From NCBI RefSeq assembly GCF_045037415.1, contig NZ_CP173438.1: 64,000 bases of DNA. One strand, given 5' to 3'. This DNA comes from Escherichia coli. Its GTDB lineage: Bacteria; Pseudomonadota; Gammaproteobacteria; Enterobacterales; Enterobacteriaceae. Numbering within the stretch: position 1 is the stretch's first letter; each line of letters opens with the position of its first letter. This document shows positions 16,511-20,503 of the stretch, in pieces. The notes beneath the pieces were generated by a model. The model was given only the letters and a program-made list of their open reading frames with translations, was not told the DNA's origin and made no database searches. Position numbers and translations under genes: made by a program.

Positions 16511-16558
16511 TTTTTGCGAGGCGTTTTCCAGATACGATGTAACAGTTGCAGTTATTAC
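16511..16558. promoter_or_regulatory. Conserved cis-element copy 1 (tttttgcgaggcg..ccagatacgatgtaacagttgcagttatt) in divergent region between yiiF-like gene and cassette
   Basis: Near-identical to 18820-18868; left half also at 20484-20503; contains cagttgcagtt direct repeat. Confidence 0.5.
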
Positions 16559-16709
16559 GAAAACCAGTAAAAAATGGAAGTGAAAACAGTCGTGTGAAAA
16601 TTTCTACTCTTTCTGAATTTACTCTATAAAGTTGCCTTTCTCACATCCAATAGCTTAATGTCATCTACCAAGAAAAAACGATAAGTCGTCAGGGAACGGA
16701 ACAGATATA

Positions 16710-17558
16710 ATGAATAAAAACGAATCAATTTCTTACACCGAAATGCAAAAATTTTTTGCCAGAGAAATTAAGGAAGTAGGCGGTAGGCCCATCACTTCTA
16801 AGAATTTAGAGTTAAGTCTGCTACCCATTCACGCCAGGGAAAACCTTTCTGCGCCAGAAATGCCGTGGTATACCGAAGTTAATGATATCTATATGGAGTT
16901 CAGACGCTCACCATTCTGGATGGTTGCCGGTTATGTATTCCTGGGATTTATGCTTTCACTACTTTCCATCTCGATATTATCTATTGTTGCATTCTCATTT
17001 TATGAGATGGGCTTTAATAGTGACTTGTTATTTCTGTATCTACTTGCATTTGTGCTTGGCTGTTTTATATTACCTGGCGCTGCAAAAATTGCTTTTTTCA
17101 CGCCACATTATCTTCCTATAAGATTTAACAGAAAAACACAAAAAATTTATGTTTCAGATTTAATTATTGAAGGCAATATCTTCTTTGGAAAAATAAAACT
17201 CACTTTTCATGAATATGACTGGAAAGATGTTGAAGGTTGGGAGGTGAGTAGACATTTCAGTAAAAGTATGCCTTACAATGGATTACATCTGGTAGTTAAT
17301 AGAGAAAATGATATAAATGCACTGCGACAGACACGCGTTTATACAACCCGTGCACCGTGGAGTGCACAAGAAATGGCAAGACAAAAGAACTATATCCCCC
17401 AAATATGGCTTTATTGCCATAATTATATGGCTTATAAAACTGTGTCTGGTGCAAAGAACAAACCACAACCATTTATTTTTTTAAGAAACAATTGGCTATT
17501 TAAATGGCCAAAAGAAATGGATAAACGTTCCAGAAGCTCAAAGATACTGTCTGAATAA
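16710..17558 (+). CDS. Hypothetical membrane protein (two predicted TM helices, approx residues 69-96 and 104-127); AT-rich accessory gene
   Basis: 282-codon ORF; 16 G/C in first 60 nt; no motif I recognise. Confidence 0.7.
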   Translation: MNKNESISYTEMQKFFAREIKEVGGRPITSKNLELSLLPIHARENLSAPEMPWYTEVNDIYMEFRRSPFWMVAGYVFLGFMLSLLSISILSIVAFSFYEMGFNSDLLFLYLLAFVLGCFILPGAAKIAFFTPHYLPIRFNRKTQKIYVSDLIIEGNIFFGKIKLTFHEYDWKDVEGWEVSRHFSKSMPYNGLHLVVNRENDINALRQTRVYTTRAPWSAQEMARQKNYIPQIWLYCHNYMAYKTVSGAKNKPQPFIFLRNNWLFKWPKEMDKRSRSSKILSE

Positions 17559-17582
17559 GCATAATAATGAAGGATTTCGACT

Positions 17583-18323
17583 ATGATTAACAAACTTACT
17601 CTTCCTTGGCCGGTATTATTTTTAGAATTTTTTGTGCGAGAAGTTGCCTTTAAGGGTAAGGGAATTGTTCGTTCTACATTACCAGCAGATGCCCATTTTT
17701 ATACCGGTGGGTCAAAAGCCCTGCGTTATCACCTACAACCAGGAAACCAATGGCCAAACTATATATGGCATGATGATATAGGTGATATTGTACCGTTTCC
17801 TCTACCCTCACTTCCGCTTACATTTACCGCTAACCGACCCACATTTAATTCCAGAGAATTAGCGGATAAATGGATGAAGGATAATATTCATACCGCTGTC
17901 ATCATGGCGGGGGAATTTCTGTCTGCTAATGAATGGATTCGCCGCAAAAACCAGCTTAAAACTAGTGTACACCCTGCGTCAGTTGCTTCTTTCGCACCCT
18001 ATGGCTTTAACATTAACCAGTGTGATGACGATGGCAATCTTTGGACTAATTTCCCACGTCCCCACATCAAATTAAAAATCGCACCAGGAAAAACAGCTTG
18101 TTTTCTCTGCCGCCGGGAAGAGCTTTTATTTGGTTATGATGAAGCACATAATCACTACCAGCCGAATCTTAATCTGGTTTTATTTGTGAAAAATCATGGG
18201 TTGCATAAGGATGTTTACCTAAAATCTCATGACGATAAAAGTGAATACGATAGCAGAATATTATGTAACGAAAAATTTACCACTTATGATTTCCGTAAAA
18301 ACCGGTCCAGATACAGCTTTTGA
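17583..18323 (+). CDS. Hypothetical protein, 246 aa, co-oriented 24 bp downstream of the membrane protein (probable operon)
   Basis: aaggat RBS 8 nt upstream of ATG 17583; AT-rich like its neighbour; no recognised motif. Confidence 0.7.
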   Translation: MINKLTLPWPVLFLEFFVREVAFKGKGIVRSTLPADAHFYTGGSKALRYHLQPGNQWPNYIWHDDIGDIVPFPLPSLPLTFTANRPTFNSRELADKWMKDNIHTAVIMAGEFLSANEWIRRKNQLKTSVHPASVASFAPYGFNINQCDDDGNLWTNFPRPHIKLKIAPGKTACFLCRREELLFGYDEAHNHYQPNLNLVLFVKNHGLHKDVYLKSHDDKSEYDSRILCNEKFTTYDFRKNRSRYSF

Positions 18324-18424
18324 TAGTTTATTATCCTGGATGATATCAGGAGCGATATCTATAAAGTTTATGCATTCCCTGTGATCAATTTTTCCTGTTA
18401 GTGAGCACAAATTCAATCTGATTG

Positions 18425-18449
18425 ATGCCAGAATAAAGGCATCTGGCAT
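18425..18449 (+). terminator. Hairpin (atgccag...ctggcat) downstream of cassette, followed by T-rich run
   Basis: 7-bp inverted repeat with 11-nt loop between convergent stops. Confidence 0.45.
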
Positions 18450-18507
18450 GTTGATTTTATGTTCCAGAATGACAAAACATTGCTGTTAATAAGCACGACT
18501 CTTTTTG

Positions 18508-18726
18508 TCATTCCTCATGCCACTTACCCTGTTCTTCAACACCAACTACCTCACCCCTTTGCCTGTCACTTTTTGCCTTACGCACCGGAAATTGCTGACG
18601 CTCCAGATATTGCTCTACCGCTTCGCGTAAAATTGCAGAGCGCGAAACCTTACGCCAGCCCCGAAGCTTGTTCAGCCGTTTAATTGCCTCTTCTGATAAA
18701 TGAAGAAAAACCGTATTCATCGCCAT
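18508..18726 (-). CDS. yiiE: Ribbon-helix-helix small regulator, YiiE-like (72-aa model)
   Basis: VFLHLSEEAIKRLNKL...RSAILREAVEQYL RHH signature; aaggtgg RBS 5 nt before ATG 18726. Confidence 0.8.
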   Translation of the reverse strand: MAMNTVFLHLSEEAIKRLNKLRGWRKVSRSAILREAVEQYLERQQFPVRKAKSDRQRGEVVGVEEQGKWHEE

Positions 18727-18819
18727 TGCCACCACCTTACATATATTACTCATTAATGTATGTGCGAAAATTACGCCGAAAAATCATTTAAAAAAAGCGG
18801 ATTTTTGCATGTCGTTTTG

Positions 18820-18868: not shown

Positions 18869-19122
18869 ATTGTTACTCAAAAATGGTTTATTACTTTTAA
18901 TTAAGCGGGGGCACATCTACAGAAAAGAAACAACAAATAATAAGGATGAATTATGGATGCTATAAATATTTTATATTCAAGAATATTTTTTTGATTGGGT
19001 CTTCATTTGCTTCATCAGGATGGTGTACCCGAAAAAGTCAGCAGCTTTACCGCACCAGGGGTTAAGGTGAAATCTACCATTCATAACGACCGGTCAGTGC
19101 CGCACCAACCGGTCTTTAATTG

Positions 19123-19401
19123 TTAGTAGTAGTAAATTTGTGGATAACAGTCCGGGAACCAGACGATTCCTTCCGGATCATCCCCCTGCATTACCCGATG
19201 ACATTGGCGTCGATCATCTGCGCGACGGCGAAGCGTAGTATAGAGCCGCTTCCATTCATGATCGCCCGGTGTACTGTAGTTTACCCAACAATCCATTGAA
19301 GGGTGACGCCATTTACCTGTAAGTGTTGGGATCCCTGAATGCTTATGCGGCTTCGCTTTACCATTACGATCCCTATCTTTACGCGTATTAAACGTGGACA
19401 T
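19123..19401 (-). CDS. Hypothetical small basic His/Cys-containing protein (92 aa)
   Basis: ATG preceded by aacaggagactaaaa (strong SD); no recognised family. Confidence 0.55.
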   Translation of the reverse strand: MSTFNTRKDRDRNGKAKPHKHSGIPTLTGKWRHPSMDCWVNYSTPGDHEWKRLYTTLRRRADDRRQCHRVMQGDDPEGIVWFPDCYPQIYYY

Positions 19402-19462
19402 TTTTAGTCTCCTGTTAAGAGTTCTAAAAATGTGCTTCCTTAAAATAGTTCATCATTTTCCC

Positions 19463-19675
19463 TTAATTCGCATAGCGTGCTTTTGCACGAATTTCCGATA
19501 CGCGGGGACCATTATGATAGCGTCGATGCCCACACATCCAACAAGAACAAATACAGGGAGTACGAAAGCAAATACCTGATGCTTTTTTGCTTCCATCGCC
19601 TGCAGTGCGATAACGACAGCGGATTTTTTTTAATCGCACCATATGATGGCGACGTTCAGCACGATTACGGGTCAT
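19463..19675 (-). CDS. Hypothetical small basic Cys/His-rich protein (70 aa; CxCxCxxCxHxxxH cluster, possible zinc ribbon)
   Basis: ATG preceded by ttcaggagttttgct (strong SD); tandem with the 92-aa gene. Confidence 0.55.
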   Translation of the reverse strand: MTRNRAERRHHMVRLKKIRCRYRTAGDGSKKASGICFRTPCICSCWMCGHRRYHNGPRVSEIRAKARYAN

Positions 19676-19759
19676 AGCAAAACTCCTGAACAGGCGGCAC
19701 TATGCCGCTTTCATAGGAGTTCTGAATGCTGGTGCTTTCTGTATGGCATAACCATGCCT

Positions 19760-20050
19760 CTAACGGTTAAGTGCTTGCAGCACATGTTGCGGATCATTGG
19801 CAATCGCTCGCAGCAAAGCCTTTGCAGGCCCGGTCGGTGAACGTCGCCCCTGCTCCCAGTTACGCAACGTGTCTACGCTTACGGAAATAAGATCGGCAAA
19901 TTTAGATTGTGACAACCCTGAAGCGCGGCGTATTTCTTTGATTTTCATAGCATCAACTTCAAAAGTCCGTGAAGGCTGTCGCGTTCCTTCAATAATTTCA
20001 TTCATCTGGGCCATGCTGTGAGTCAACCGCTCAAAAAGTGCCTTATCCAT
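19760..20050 (-). CDS. XRE-family HTH antitoxin (HigA-like)
   Basis: 96 aa; HTH segment IKEIRRASGLSQSKFADLISVSVDTLRNWEQGRRSP; start codon abuts upstream toxin stop with gaggtgg SD inside toxin 3' end. Confidence 0.8.
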   Translation of the reverse strand: MDKALFERLTHSMAQMNEIIEGTRQPSRTFEVDAMKIKEIRRASGLSQSKFADLISVSVDTLRNWEQGRRSPTGPAKALLRAIANDPQHVLQALNR

Positions 20051-20362
20051 TTACCACCTCGTATTTAACAACCGGAGCATTGCTTTTTCCTGGGGAGACA
20101 GATCATCTTTAATACCCTTACGATAAATAAGCAGTAATCTGATCTCATAATGTTTAACCTGATGAAAGTAAATAACCCTGACACCAGCACGTTTCCCCTT
20201 TCCTCCTGAGACCCATCGAACCTTTCTTAACCCACCAGTTTCAGGTATTACCTCACCATAGTCAGGATTCAAGGCCAGGAAAAACTGAAAACGACTGAAT
20301 TCATCGTCGTTCAGCAGTTTTTGAACATCTTCAGTAAAAATTTCCGTTTCGATGAAGAGCAT
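20051..20362 (-). CDS. RelE/ParE-superfamily toxin (HigB-like), upstream of its antitoxin
   Basis: 103 aa; GLRKVRW...GKGKRAGVRVIYF...LLLIYRKG pattern typical of RelE/HigB-type toxins; toxin-first gene order. Confidence 0.72.
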   Translation of the reverse strand: MLFIETEIFTEDVQKLLNDDEFSRFQFFLALNPDYGEVIPETGGLRKVRWVSGGKGKRAGVRVIYFHQVKHYEIRLLLIYRKGIKDDLSPQEKAMLRLLNTRW

Positions 20363-20483
20363 AATTATACGCCATTGGCTTAGAGCAACAATCCTTTTTG
20401 TACGTCATTGACGTACCATTGAAACCACTAGCTTACTGATAGTGCTCCAGCAAAACCACGTCTCTGCCGGGTTTGTCTTTACA

Positions 20484-20503
20484 TTTGCGAGGCGCTTTCC
20501 AGA
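20484..20503. promoter_or_regulatory. Conserved cis-element copy 3 (left half only: tttgcgaggcgctttccagat) upstream of HigB-like gene
   Basis: 20/21 identity to 16513-16533. Confidence 0.4.

Follow-up and report, generated by a model that had tools for sequence, protein, structure and literature searches.

A 21-bp core conserved across Enterobacteriaceae and Escherichia-specific duplicated flanks make up a three-fold repeat at the fdhE-fabY locus of Escherichia coli

Type II antitoxins normally autoregulate via operators within their own promoter region, and the RHH domain of PutA reads GTTGCA. For the fdhE-fabY site, a related toxin-antitoxin cluster, sehCD/STM4032/sehAB of Salmonella Typhimurium, has been described (De la Cruz et al. 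2013, PMC3868539; a retracted article, cited for gene order only), and the same article reports 72% identity between SehC and a HigB of E. coli. The passages of that article consulted here do not mention a shared 21-bp motif, and the motif sequences given below found no match in the literature. The window analysed here, a 64-kb stretch of DNA, is the E. coli fdhE-fabY locus. The original prediction described in it a single promoter-operator module, repeated upstream of three minus-strand units and recognized by RHH proteins through a cagttgcagtt direct repeat. We find that the three-fold repeat is a composite of an old 21-base core and Escherichia-only flanks from tandem duplication, not one module, since the left half alone is conserved outside Escherichia.

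The repeat was confirmed in the window, with two long copies (1 and 2) and a third occurrence of the left half at 20484-20504 (Table 1). The right-half sequence ATGTAACAGTTGCAGTTATT has exactly two matches in the 64 kb, against a chance expectation of 0.00 with three mismatches allowed, and TTTGCGAGGCGNTTTCCAGAT, which represents the left half, matches at 16513-16533 and 20484-20504 with 0.02 matches expected by chance. Copy 3, taken as 20478-20504, is identical to copy 1 at 24 of 27 positions. Copies 1 and 2 exist as predicted, but they are longer than first described, forming 100-nt blocks beyond which a similarity of about 60% runs on through both RHH genes. The proposed distances to the minus-strand starts also hold, at 93 nt for the yiiF-like gene (16420), 96 nt for the yiiE-like gene (annotated start 18726) and 122 nt for higB (20362). 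The statement that each copy faces plus-strand cargo is wrong for copy 2, because all genes between 18887 and 20362 lie on the minus strand. K-12 carries copies 1 and 2, and the similarity reaches orthologous loci, the repeat being present in 5413 of 5426 complete E. coli genomes. Gene content beside the element differs between strains and species, as had been suggested; the cargo pair of the window (a DUF6708 protein and a 246-aa protein) is absent from K-12, and the architecture that includes it was found in 564 of the 5426 genomes.

Table 1. Features of the fdhE-fabY locus in the 64-kb window
Feature	Position	Strand	Remarks
vapC pseudogene remnant	16033..16161	-	N- and C-terminal PIN pieces, middle deleted; tblastn, Citrobacter VapC query
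yiiF-like RHH gene, orphan VapB antitoxin orthologue	16178..16420	-	Identity to VapC-paired VapB: 74% Citrobacter, 63% Klebsiella
Full 100-nt repeat block 1	16478..16577		Family D1; part of gene-side leader, core, right half, ~20 nt further
Core copy 1, yiiF side	16513..16533	-	Minus strand aTCTGGAAAACGCCTCGCAAA; identical in K-12; 93 nt upstream of yiiF-like start
Right half, copy 1 (ATGTAACAGTTGCAGTTATT)	16537..16556		Escherichia-specific junction sequence beside core; none upstream of vapB in other genera
Cargo pair: DUF6708 membrane protein (16710-17558) and 246-aa protein (17583-18323)	16710..18323	+	GC 37%
Second PIN toxin remnant (vapC'), downstream of yiiE	18390..18464	-	Motif MPDAFILASIRLN; tblastn, Citrobacter VapC query
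yiiE-like RHH gene, Escherichia-restricted yiiF paralogue	18508..18726	-	40% identical to YiiF
Full 100-nt repeat block 2	18787..18886		74% identity to block 1 across 100 nt
Core copy 2, yiiE side	18822..18842	-	Minus strand CTTTGGATGCAGTCTCGCAAA; left block degenerate in this haplotype
Right half, copy 2	18846..18865		Identical to copy 1; spanned by promoter-like TTGAAA-18-TATCTT, minus strand
Pair of small basic ORFs, of 92 and 70 aa, travelling with higBA	19123..19675	-	70-aa ORF matches phrog_4499
higBA toxin-antitoxin cassette: higB (20051-20362) and higA/NadS (19760-20050)	19760..20362	-	Homologous to Salmonella sehCD
Perfect palindrome GTACGTCAtTGACGTAC	20400..20416		Likely HigA operator; seen in sequence
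Core copy 3, esterase/higB side	20484..20504	-	Minus strand aTCTGGAAAGCGCCTCGCAAA; 87 nt upstream of esterase ATG
Predicted esterase promoter region	20552..20574	+	-10-like TATAAA (20552-20557), LexA-box-like CTGT-N8-ACAG (20559-20574); 24-species intergenic alignment
Alpha/beta hydrolase, hormone-sensitive-lipase-type esterase	20591..21499	+	Ancestral divergent neighbour of vapBC

Read on the minus strand, which is the strand of the small genes, the core is a 21-bp bipartite sequence, (A)T-TCTGGAAAG-N3-CTCGCAAAA. It was found in about 40 enterobacterial species, mid-way in the divergent intergenic region between toxin-antitoxin and esterase genes, a region of about 200 bp located between fdhE and fabY in Enterobacteriaceae. 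A 24-species alignment of this region contains only three conserved blocks, of which the core is one. Across 43 compiled sites, information content is 1.44 bits per position in the core versus 0.45 and 0.73 in the flanks, with core variation limited to the 3-nt centre; the left half of copy 2 in the window is the most degenerate of this set, while in K-12 copies 1 and 2 of the core match at 22 of 23 positions. Spacing to the surviving neighbour is constant (86-87 nt to the esterase ATG, 92-96 nt to the vapB, yiiF or yiiE start, about 122 nt to higB). In E. coli the core is restricted to the fdhE-fabY locus, with a median of two and a maximum of four places per genome. Judged by its distribution and conservation, the core is an apparently ancient, locus-specific motif. 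The element was also rejected as a dispersed repeat and as a known RNA.

The core is retained through extensive changes of gene content, beside vapBC, higBA or the esterase gene on its own as well as beside any combination of them. It accompanies vapBC alone in Trabulsiella (10 nt past the fabY stop), strain RIT714 and Lelliottia, and higBA alone in E. hormaechei FDAARGOS 1433, where a perfect core lies 6 nt from the fabY stop. Esterase-only loci have zero (Leclercia), one (K. aerogenes) and three (E. hormaechei) core mismatches, and Salmonella Senftenberg combines the core with higBA and esterase. Neither loss nor replacement of one of its neighbours has removed the core, and purifying selection therefore acts on the core itself. 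The higBA cassette is flanked by cores on both sides in three genera, with direct repeats of 27 bp (perfect) in K. spallanzanii and 21 bp in Pseudocitrobacter; both small ORFs (92 aa and 70 aa) are syntenic in K. spallanzanii, and Pseudocitrobacter carries the 70-aa one as well. Nucleotide divergence of the cassette (70-79%) is similar to that of the flanking genes (68-76%), thus the higBA insertion is old, and both core copies have nonetheless been retained.

These arrangements bear on copy 3, which had been assigned to HigB. Occurrence of the core in the divergent toxin-antitoxin/esterase region and its duplication on both sides of higBA mark copy 3 as the copy of this ancestral motif that belongs to the esterase side, and its distance to the esterase ATG equals that in single-core species. 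An operator role for HigB is not upheld, as higBA has its own palindrome, GTACGTCAtTGACGTAC, nearer its start. Related palindromes precede higB in Salmonella, E. hormaechei and an Erwinia plasmid, and the higBA homologue on that plasmid has no core.

The ancestral gene order, fdhE, vapC-vapB divergent from esterase, fabY, is found in Citrobacter, Klebsiella and altogether about 30 species of at least 12 genera. The suggestion that the array was built by duplication is borne out by the paralogous RHH genes, their homologous flanks and the PIN-toxin remnant after each; at the position of the vapC' motif K-12 retains PDALILVLIQ. None of the YiiE homologues (n = 114) is named outside Escherichia or Shigella. 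The extra similarity of copies 1 and 2 takes in cagttgcagtt, some 35 nt towards the gene and some 115 nt beyond the core, a distance that the unit periodicity also reaches. We attribute it to a probable tandem duplication, in Escherichia, in which core, leader, vapB and part of vapC were copied as one unit. Left of the vapB-side core, other genera have sequence without homology to the right half of E. coli, and cagttgcagtt is missing before vapB in all other genera examined. It has diverged in the K-12 yiiE allele and does not precede yiiE in E. whittamii, where the order is esterase remnant, LexA-like box, core and yiiE, and the whole right half is missing.

The explanation that we favour, with moderate confidence, is that an old, selected core, likely a host-factor site serving both divergent promoters, was combined in Escherichia with flanks produced by duplication. 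The two conserved blocks of the core lie one helical turn apart around the free 3-nt centre, and the core is about 70 nt upstream of the best conserved promoter-like sites in both directions, which together suggest a binding site for a host factor. A putative conserved, host-encoded DNA-binding protein would bind the core and act on both promoters. The esterase gene is preceded by a conserved TTTTCA-17-TATAA(A/C) and the CTGT-N8-ACAG box, and the toxin-antitoxin side has a recurrent -10-like site 74 nt from the core start. These presumed promoter positions are weak consensus matches, and a promoter scan of the region gave fewer sites than in shuffled sequence. In this explanation yiiF is the orthologous orphan antitoxin gene and yiiE the fast-evolving duplicate, both toxins having decayed to PIN remnants, and the higBA cassette with its two small ORFs, lying between two cores as in Klebsiella spallanzanii and Pseudocitrobacter, separates copy 3 from copies 1 and 2. 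The order of events, by tandem duplication or by cassette concatenation, is a reconstruction.

The main rival to a host-factor site, itself rather unlikely, is an att-like site or hotspot at which cassettes (vapBC, higBA, esterase, other cargo) are inserted, excised or exchanged, much as at an integron attachment site but with no linked integrase. In several independent lineages rearrangement breakpoints fall right at the core edges, as do the ends of deletions in Trabulsiella and E. hormaechei, and a recombination site would explain these breakpoints and the direct repeats around higBA in three genera at least as naturally. S. enterica carries either vapBC or sehCD on the same side of the core, two E. 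hormaechei strains have only the core in common, E. whittamii resembles the product of recombination between copies 3 and 2, and the central triplet is identical between both copies within a genome. However, no recombinase or transposase gene is present at the locus in any architecture, the two blocks do not form an inverted repeat, and inspection by eye shows no similarity of the core to dif or integron attC. It is equally conserved in many insertion-free species, so that a host function would be needed anyway. Concatenation of core-bearing cassettes or tandem duplication would also give direct repeats, selection on the core may, through survivorship, account for the breakpoints at its edges, and in some E. 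coli yiiF was lost by simple microhomology (tttcgcg), in a deletion that reaches into the core.

Equally doubtful is the reading of each copy as a promoter-operator autoregulated by its cognate YiiF, YiiE or VapB, with cagttgcagtt as the RHH site. It accords with the autoregulatory habit of type II antitoxins, with the GTTGCA motif of PutA, and with the fixed spacing that places the core 92-96 nt from the start of vapB, yiiF or yiiE in every species. Where the core has its canonical form, VapB shows no change in the beta-strand GRILLDLS, and a Cedecea vapBC copy at a different locus has a degenerate core-like sequence, ...CACGCAAAAC, in the equivalent position. Nevertheless, Leclercia, K. aerogenes, E. 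hormaechei and Salmonella Senftenberg keep the core, often in perfect form, although their loci contain no RHH gene, which makes an RHH-specific operator unlikely, and the core is kept on the esterase side even where higBA parts it from vapB. YiiF and YiiE differ at all three predicted base-reading positions of the beta-strand (R-L-D versus T-F-H), yet their cores in K-12 are nearly identical. The core shows neither dyad nor direct-repeat symmetry, and instead of overlapping the best promoter-like sites it is placed some 60-80 nt upstream of them. A stronger candidate for an operator is the inverted repeat ATATAC-N5-GTATAT, which is conserved at the ribosome-binding site and start of vapB. As for cagttgcagtt, its confinement to Escherichia and its lack before E. 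whittamii yiiE speak against the RHH site originally proposed.

That the similarity reflects nothing but the common descent of duplicated DNA that is now without function is improbable for the element as a whole, although it may well apply to the Escherichia flanks, whose 70-80% identity is modestly above the approximately 60% of the coding sequences. E. whittamii dispenses with the right half, and the left block of copy 2 has decayed in this genome. For the core this reading is excluded by its near invariance in at least 12 genera while the adjoining intergenic DNA has almost completely diverged. A sigma-54 promoter was rejected. The minus-strand GG/GC elements with canonical -24/-12 spacing (TGGaaaG-N4-TcGCA) and variable spacer bases fit TGGCACG-N4-TTGCW, but on a weight matrix from 50 ChIP-seq sites the core scores 1.7-4.4 bits (copy 2, -1.6) against 7.9 for the weakest real site, some 300-400 window positions score equally, the K-12 sigma-54 ChIP-seq lists a site in fdoI and none at yiiE or yiiF, and no enhancer-binding protein gene is nearby.

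Compared with class I activator-type sites near -70, the core is alike in being a single site midway in a divergent region of about 200 bp, some 70 nt from both predicted starts and with its blocks one helical turn apart. Unlike them, it matches no known E. coli motif, and its regulatory role is putative. The locus resembles the promoter regions of RHH-PIN toxin-antitoxin systems (FitAB, VapBC) and of orphan antitoxins in having the repeat upstream of VapB-type genes, and resembles orphan antitoxins also in that the toxins have decayed, leaving solitary antitoxin genes. In contrast to autoregulated toxin-antitoxin promoters, the core is non-palindromic and off the predicted promoter, survives without an RHH gene, and is common to the unrelated higBA cassette and an esterase gene; the inverted repeat at the vapB start is closer to a classical operator. 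Integron and superintegron arrays likewise have a short repeat between exchangeable, mostly same-strand cassettes, several of them toxin-antitoxin. However, this locus lacks both an integrase and any imperfect palindrome of the attC kind, the core is single-copy in most species, and the array has at most three units. The Salmonella sehCD cluster occupies the same fdhE-fabY site, with a higBA-type cassette divergent from the same esterase gene according to the gene order in the retracted report (PMC3868539). Salmonella has one core, whereas this E. coli has three, together with the vapB-derived yiiE and yiiF.

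The window spans the E. coli fdoGHI-fdhE / fabY(yiiD)-dtd region, and the features found there are listed in the table. The repeated element has a 21-bp bipartite core on the yiiF side (copy 1), on the yiiE side (copy 2) and on the side of the esterase, an α/β hydrolase, and higB (copy 3); in copies 1 and 2 the core is adjoined by a 20-mer, the right half, which contains cagttgcagtt. A search of the window and its shuffles confirmed that the reported sequences exist at their positions: ATGTAACAGTTGCAGTTATT is found solely at the two right halves (0.00 matches in the shuffled window) and TTTGCGAGGCGNTTTCCAGAT solely at core copies 1 and 3 (0.02 matches). 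Copies 1 and 2 sit in 100-nt blocks that are 74% identical (74-77% for yiiF/yiiE upstream blocks), and similarity of ~60% runs on from these blocks through both neighbouring small genes. Copy 3 is identical to copy 1 at 24 of 27 positions.

Features of the fdhE-fabY locus and its surroundings in the window (1-based positions)
Feature	Position	Strand	Remarks
Sigma-54-type site	14588	plus	strong; inside fdoI
vapC pseudogene	16033-16161		3' of yiiF; N- and C-terminal pieces, internal deletion; unannotated
yiiF-like RHH gene, 80 aa	16178-16420	minus	between fdhE and fabY
100-nt block of copy 1	16478-16577		
Core copy 1	16513-16533	minus	yiiF side
Right half of copy 1	16537-16556		
DUF6708 membrane protein and 246-aa protein without family match	16710-18323	plus	cargo pair; 37% GC, AT-rich
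PIN-motif remnant	18390-18464		3' of yiiE; unannotated
yiiE-like RHH gene, 72 aa	18508-18726	minus	between fdhE and fabY
100-nt block of copy 2	18787-18886		
Core copy 2	18822-18842	minus	yiiE side
Right half of copy 2	18846-18865		
Two small ORFs	19123-19675	minus	basic, Cys-containing; accompany higBA
higA/NadS and higB		minus	between small ORFs and hydrolase
Perfect palindrome	20400-20416		belongs to higBA
Core copy 3	20484-20504	minus	esterase/higB side
-10-like TATAAA and LexA-box-like palindrome	20552-20574		upstream of esterase gene
α/β hydrolase, hormone-sensitive-lipase type		plus	between higB and fabY
Perfect 13-bp inverted repeat	21517-21545		between convergent esterase and fabY genes
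Sigma-54-type site	35351	plus	strong

The 100-nt block is present in 5413 of 5426 complete E. coli genomes, with both a median and a maximum of two places and always at this locus, while a 30-nt core query matched 2 places in the median genome and never more than 4. Since the element is confined to one locus and to few places per genome, and the window holds no further copy, a dispersed intergenic repeat (REP/BIME, ERIC or MITE) was ruled out. In K-12, yiiF and yiiE are each preceded by a copy. The original prediction of variable cargo next to the element was borne out by the gene content, which is highly variable among E. coli strains. The DUF6708-pair architecture of the window was found in 564 of the 5426 genomes (~10%), and this cargo pair occupies the former vapC' position. 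Beyond yiiE there are three alternatives, namely the higBA-esterase block, two ORFs (O157 type) or mere remnants (K-12), and some strains have lost yiiF by a deletion at tttcgcg microhomology that also cuts into the first core. The O157-type cargo (locus L004 of E. coli O157, 2098-3912; L005) encodes two ~300-aa proteins. Neither matches a Pfam or NCBIfam family, and they were rejected as recombinases for this reason; one homologue is labelled 'transposase' in another record, a label for which no support was found. The yiiE region exists as two E. coli haplotypes with ~80% identity (window 18502-19230 versus 1181-1782 of the K-12 locus L002). Copy 2 has the core of copy 1 in the K-12-type haplotype, and the right half of copy 1 together with a degenerate core in the window-type one; this pattern looks like patchy gene conversion.

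At the same chromosomal place, Citrobacter freundii and Klebsiella pneumoniae have yiiF-like DNA in the order fdhE, vapC-vapB, a ~200-bp intergenic region, esterase and fabY. YiiF is 74% and 63% identical to the Citrobacter and Klebsiella VapB proteins, respectively, and 40% identical to YiiE. Among the 39 loci found with one genome scanned per species, about 30 show this ancestral synteny, including those of Citrobacter, Klebsiella, Salmonella, Kluyvera, Superficieibacter, Pseudocitrobacter, Trabulsiella, Lelliottia, Franconibacter and Kosakonia. In the window, yiiF is followed by a vapC pseudogene and yiiE by a remnant of the PIN motif of VapC toxins (MPDAFILASIRLN), in place of which K-12, as read from the sequence, retains PDALILVLIQ. 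Because dead vapC or PIN remnants follow both RHH genes, yiiF is an orphan antitoxin gene and yiiE a second one, and judging from these remnants both were once full vapBC-type modules. The YiiE family is limited to Escherichia and Shigella. Thus, two uncharacterised 'y-gene' regulators of K-12 are recast as an orphan VapB and its Escherichia-only duplicate. In loci L014-L047 (for example, L015 3480-3503), the Shine-Dalgarno sequence of vapB sits within a conserved inverted repeat, ATATAC-TGGAG-GTATAT, which adjoins the start codon and represents a candidate VapB operator or translational hairpin; at E. coli yiiF and yiiE this repeat is decayed. Between fdhE and yiiF, K-12 has a REP/BIME-type palindromic element (L002 570-700), which is missing from the window (16122-16168). 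In a published 3'-end data set, one site (position 4079994, minus strand) is antisense to yiiF, suggesting that transcription reads through from fdhE into this gene.

When the intergenic region between vapB and the esterase gene was aligned for 24 species, just three blocks proved to be conserved: TTTTCA-17-TATAA(A/C) followed by CTGT-N8-ACAG in the esterase promoter region, TGATATAC-TGGAG-GTATAT beside the vapB start, and the mid-intergenic core, which on the strand of the small genes reads (A)T-TCTGGAAAG-NNN-CTCGCAAAA. Across 43 sites the core carries 1.44 bits per position versus 0.45 and 0.73 in its flanks, and its variation is limited to the central triplet. Its spacing is 92-96 nt to the vapB, yiiF or yiiE start and 86-87 nt to the esterase ATG. 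The core is kept in loci with vapBC only (Trabulsiella, where it follows the fabY stop by 10 nt; strain RIT714; and Lelliottia) as well as in those with the esterase only (Leclercia 21/21, K. aerogenes 20/21 and E. hormaechei 18/21). It is also kept in Salmonella Senftenberg, in which higBA (sehCD) replaces vapBC, and in E. hormaechei FDAARGOS 1433, where higBA alone is left, the core is perfect and separated from higB by 122 nt and from the fabY stop by 6 nt. Of the three higBA matches examined in plasmid and phage collections, those from Salmonella Senftenberg (record H75) and E. hormaechei (H74) are the fdhE-fabY locus itself, and the Erwinia plasmid homologue (H79) has a different context and no core. 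In Cedecea, vapBC at a different locus is accompanied by a degenerate core only. Since the core is retained whatever its neighbours and is absent or degenerate with off-locus cassettes, it belongs to the locus and not to one gene. The same slot holds vapBC or sehCD/higBA in different Salmonella enterica strains (L052 versus L056), and in two E. hormaechei strains (L053 versus L057) the 21-bp core is the sole common feature between fdhE and fabY. For the organisation of the sehCD locus only, we used the LT2 gene order from a retracted paper (PMC3868539).

The suggestion that the array was built by duplication is upheld by the homologous RHH genes, flanks and PIN remnants, which follow in the same order and orientation. 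In E. coli, ~115 nt past copy 2 repeats the stretch past copy 1, and the sequences before both copies are homologous as well. Serial tandem duplication of a unit comprising the core, leader, vapB and part of vapC would have made this array. The original prediction placed the module upstream of HigB as well, but the stretch from copy 3 to the esterase ATG aligns position by position with the intergenic region of Citrobacter and Klebsiella, so that by this alignment copy 3 is the esterase-side core, and higBA has a palindrome of its own. In K. spallanzanii and Pseudocitrobacter, a higBA cassette with the 70-aa ORF (in K. spallanzanii also the 92-aa ORF) lies between two cores, which form a perfect 27-bp repeat in the former and a 21-bp repeat in the latter, and the distance from the esterase-side core to the beginning of the cassette equals that in E. 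coli. The 70-aa ORF (phrog_4499) is shared by E. coli, K. spallanzanii and Pseudocitrobacter (window 19123-19675; L036 2749-3304; L021 3075-3284), and the 92-aa ORF by E. coli and K. spallanzanii. Between genera the cassette is 70-79% diverged at the nucleotide level versus 68-76% for the flanking esterase gene and vapB; having diverged as much as its flanks, the arrangement is old, with both cores kept. E. whittamii has an esterase remnant, a LexA-like box, one core and yiiE, an arrangement which recombination between copies 3 and 2 would yield.

The right half ATGTAACAGTTGCAGTTATT is restricted to Escherichia. With the core between it and the small gene, it lies in the junction with the decayed vapC of the neighbouring unit. 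Its proposed role as an RHH site found no support, as it is missing upstream of yiiE in E. whittamii and diverged in the K-12 yiiE allele (ATAAGAGTGTTGCAGTTGTT). In copy 2, it would form the spacer of a minus-strand promoter-like TTGAAA-18-TATCTT, a reading inconsistent between copies. Homology to the vapC 3' coding region was not accepted, with one translated alignment (IITATVTSY versus IILATAQIH) being suggestive and not significant alone.

The core itself is most likely the putative binding site of a conserved host-encoded protein serving both promoters. Its two blocks are invariant and stand one helical turn apart around a centre that is free to vary. It lies midway in a divergent intergenic region of conserved length, and on either side the best conserved promoter-like sites follow ~70 nt downstream of it. 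Such a protein would bind the core and act on both divergent promoters. Were the core a regulatory site, it would point to a factor that links TA cassettes with an esterase probably under SOS control.

The chief rival reading is a recombination pivot. Here the core would be a fixed chromosomal attachment-like site, and a recombination activity acting in trans or supplied by the host would join, remove and exchange TA cassettes and other cargo on either side of it. Direct core repeats do flank inserted DNA (K. spallanzanii, 27 bp and perfect; Pseudocitrobacter, 21 bp; E. coli, copies 1 to 3), single species carry different cassettes on the same core side, and several independent deletions end at the core edge. 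However, direct repeats are also expected from duplication or concatenation of core-carrying units, and breakpoints at the edge may also result from selection on the core. Moreover, none of the architectures examined contains an integrase or transposase, and the core blocks, on either side of a variable 3-nt centre, match imperfectly as inverted repeats (4 of 7 positions). We regard a pivot as improbable; if it were real, the locus would amount to a small cassette array that lacks an integrase and is conserved across Enterobacteriaceae, and would offer a simple model for the building of TA hotspots.

The single promoter-operator module bound by RHH proteins that the original prediction had envisaged found no support. 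In the operator reading considered here, the core would be the operator of the adjacent RHH protein. The core is common to yiiE and yiiF, yet their products differ at the base-reading positions (T-F-H in YiiE, R-L-D in YiiF, by alignment), which for CopG-type RHH proteins are known from RHH-DNA complexes. Perfect or near-perfect cores persist without any RHH gene at the locus in Leclercia, K. aerogenes, two E. hormaechei strains and Salmonella Senftenberg. The 43-site compilation shows neither dyad nor direct repeat, and the core lies off the predicted promoters, with the best promoter-like sites ending 74-103 nt downstream of its start. Owing to this survival without RHH genes, the differing base-reading residues, the lack of symmetry and the off-promoter position, an RHH operator is unlikely. 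Covariation between the VapB β-strand and the core is uninformative because the strand is invariant.

Several other readings were rejected. A sigma-54 promoter has in its favour the GG/GC dinucleotides ten bases apart (TGGAAAG-N4-TCGCA in all copies), but on a matrix built from 50 ChIP-seq sites the core scores 1.7-4.4 bits and real sites reach 7.9 or more; hundreds of window positions score as well, and the K-12 sigma-54 ChIP-seq tables have no peak at the element. By eye and matrix scan, the core has no consistent -35/-10 pair of a sigma-70 promoter on either strand; a small ORF across it is rejected since the variable bases form one contiguous triplet and all neighbouring 'synonymous' positions are invariant (43 sites); and the sole Rfam match, Thr_leader, is at chance level (22.8 bits versus a gathering score of 55, E = 0.6), which rules out a known structured RNA. 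By comparison with familiar consensus motifs, none appears to fit both core blocks (CRP, IHF, Fis, FadR, PurR, the IclR/AllR half-site, the MarA/SoxS box, the Ada box, SlyA, LexA, sigma-32 and sigma-E). Neither protein binding at the core nor transcription starts of yiiE or yiiF were found in the published data examined. The SlyA genomic-SELEX targets in K-12 include yiiE, with no position relative to the core given (PMC6134199).

Several other sites were noted in the window. The LexA-box-like palindrome CTGTacattcatACAG directly follows a -10-like TATAAA, and CTGT-N8-ACAG is kept at the esterase promoter in more than 24 species; given this conserved box, the esterase may be SOS-regulated. The inverted repeat GAAAAGGTTTTCA / TGAAAACCTTTTC downstream of the esterase gene is probably a bidirectional terminator. 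The sigma-54-type site within fdoI, CTGGCGCGAATTCTGCA, matches the published intragenic ChIP-seq site IS47, and the other, TTGGCACAGTTTTCGCT, is one base off the published glnA site OS37 (TTGGCACAGATTTCGCT).

The core thus represents a very strongly conserved, locus-specific fixed point, around which two TA families and an esterase gene come, go and exchange. A literature search returned no match to the core motif sequences, and both the motif and its fixed-point behaviour appear to be undescribed. The duplication of an orphan antitoxin and the TA hotspot are of ordinary kinds, and on present evidence the locus does not constitute a new kind of system.
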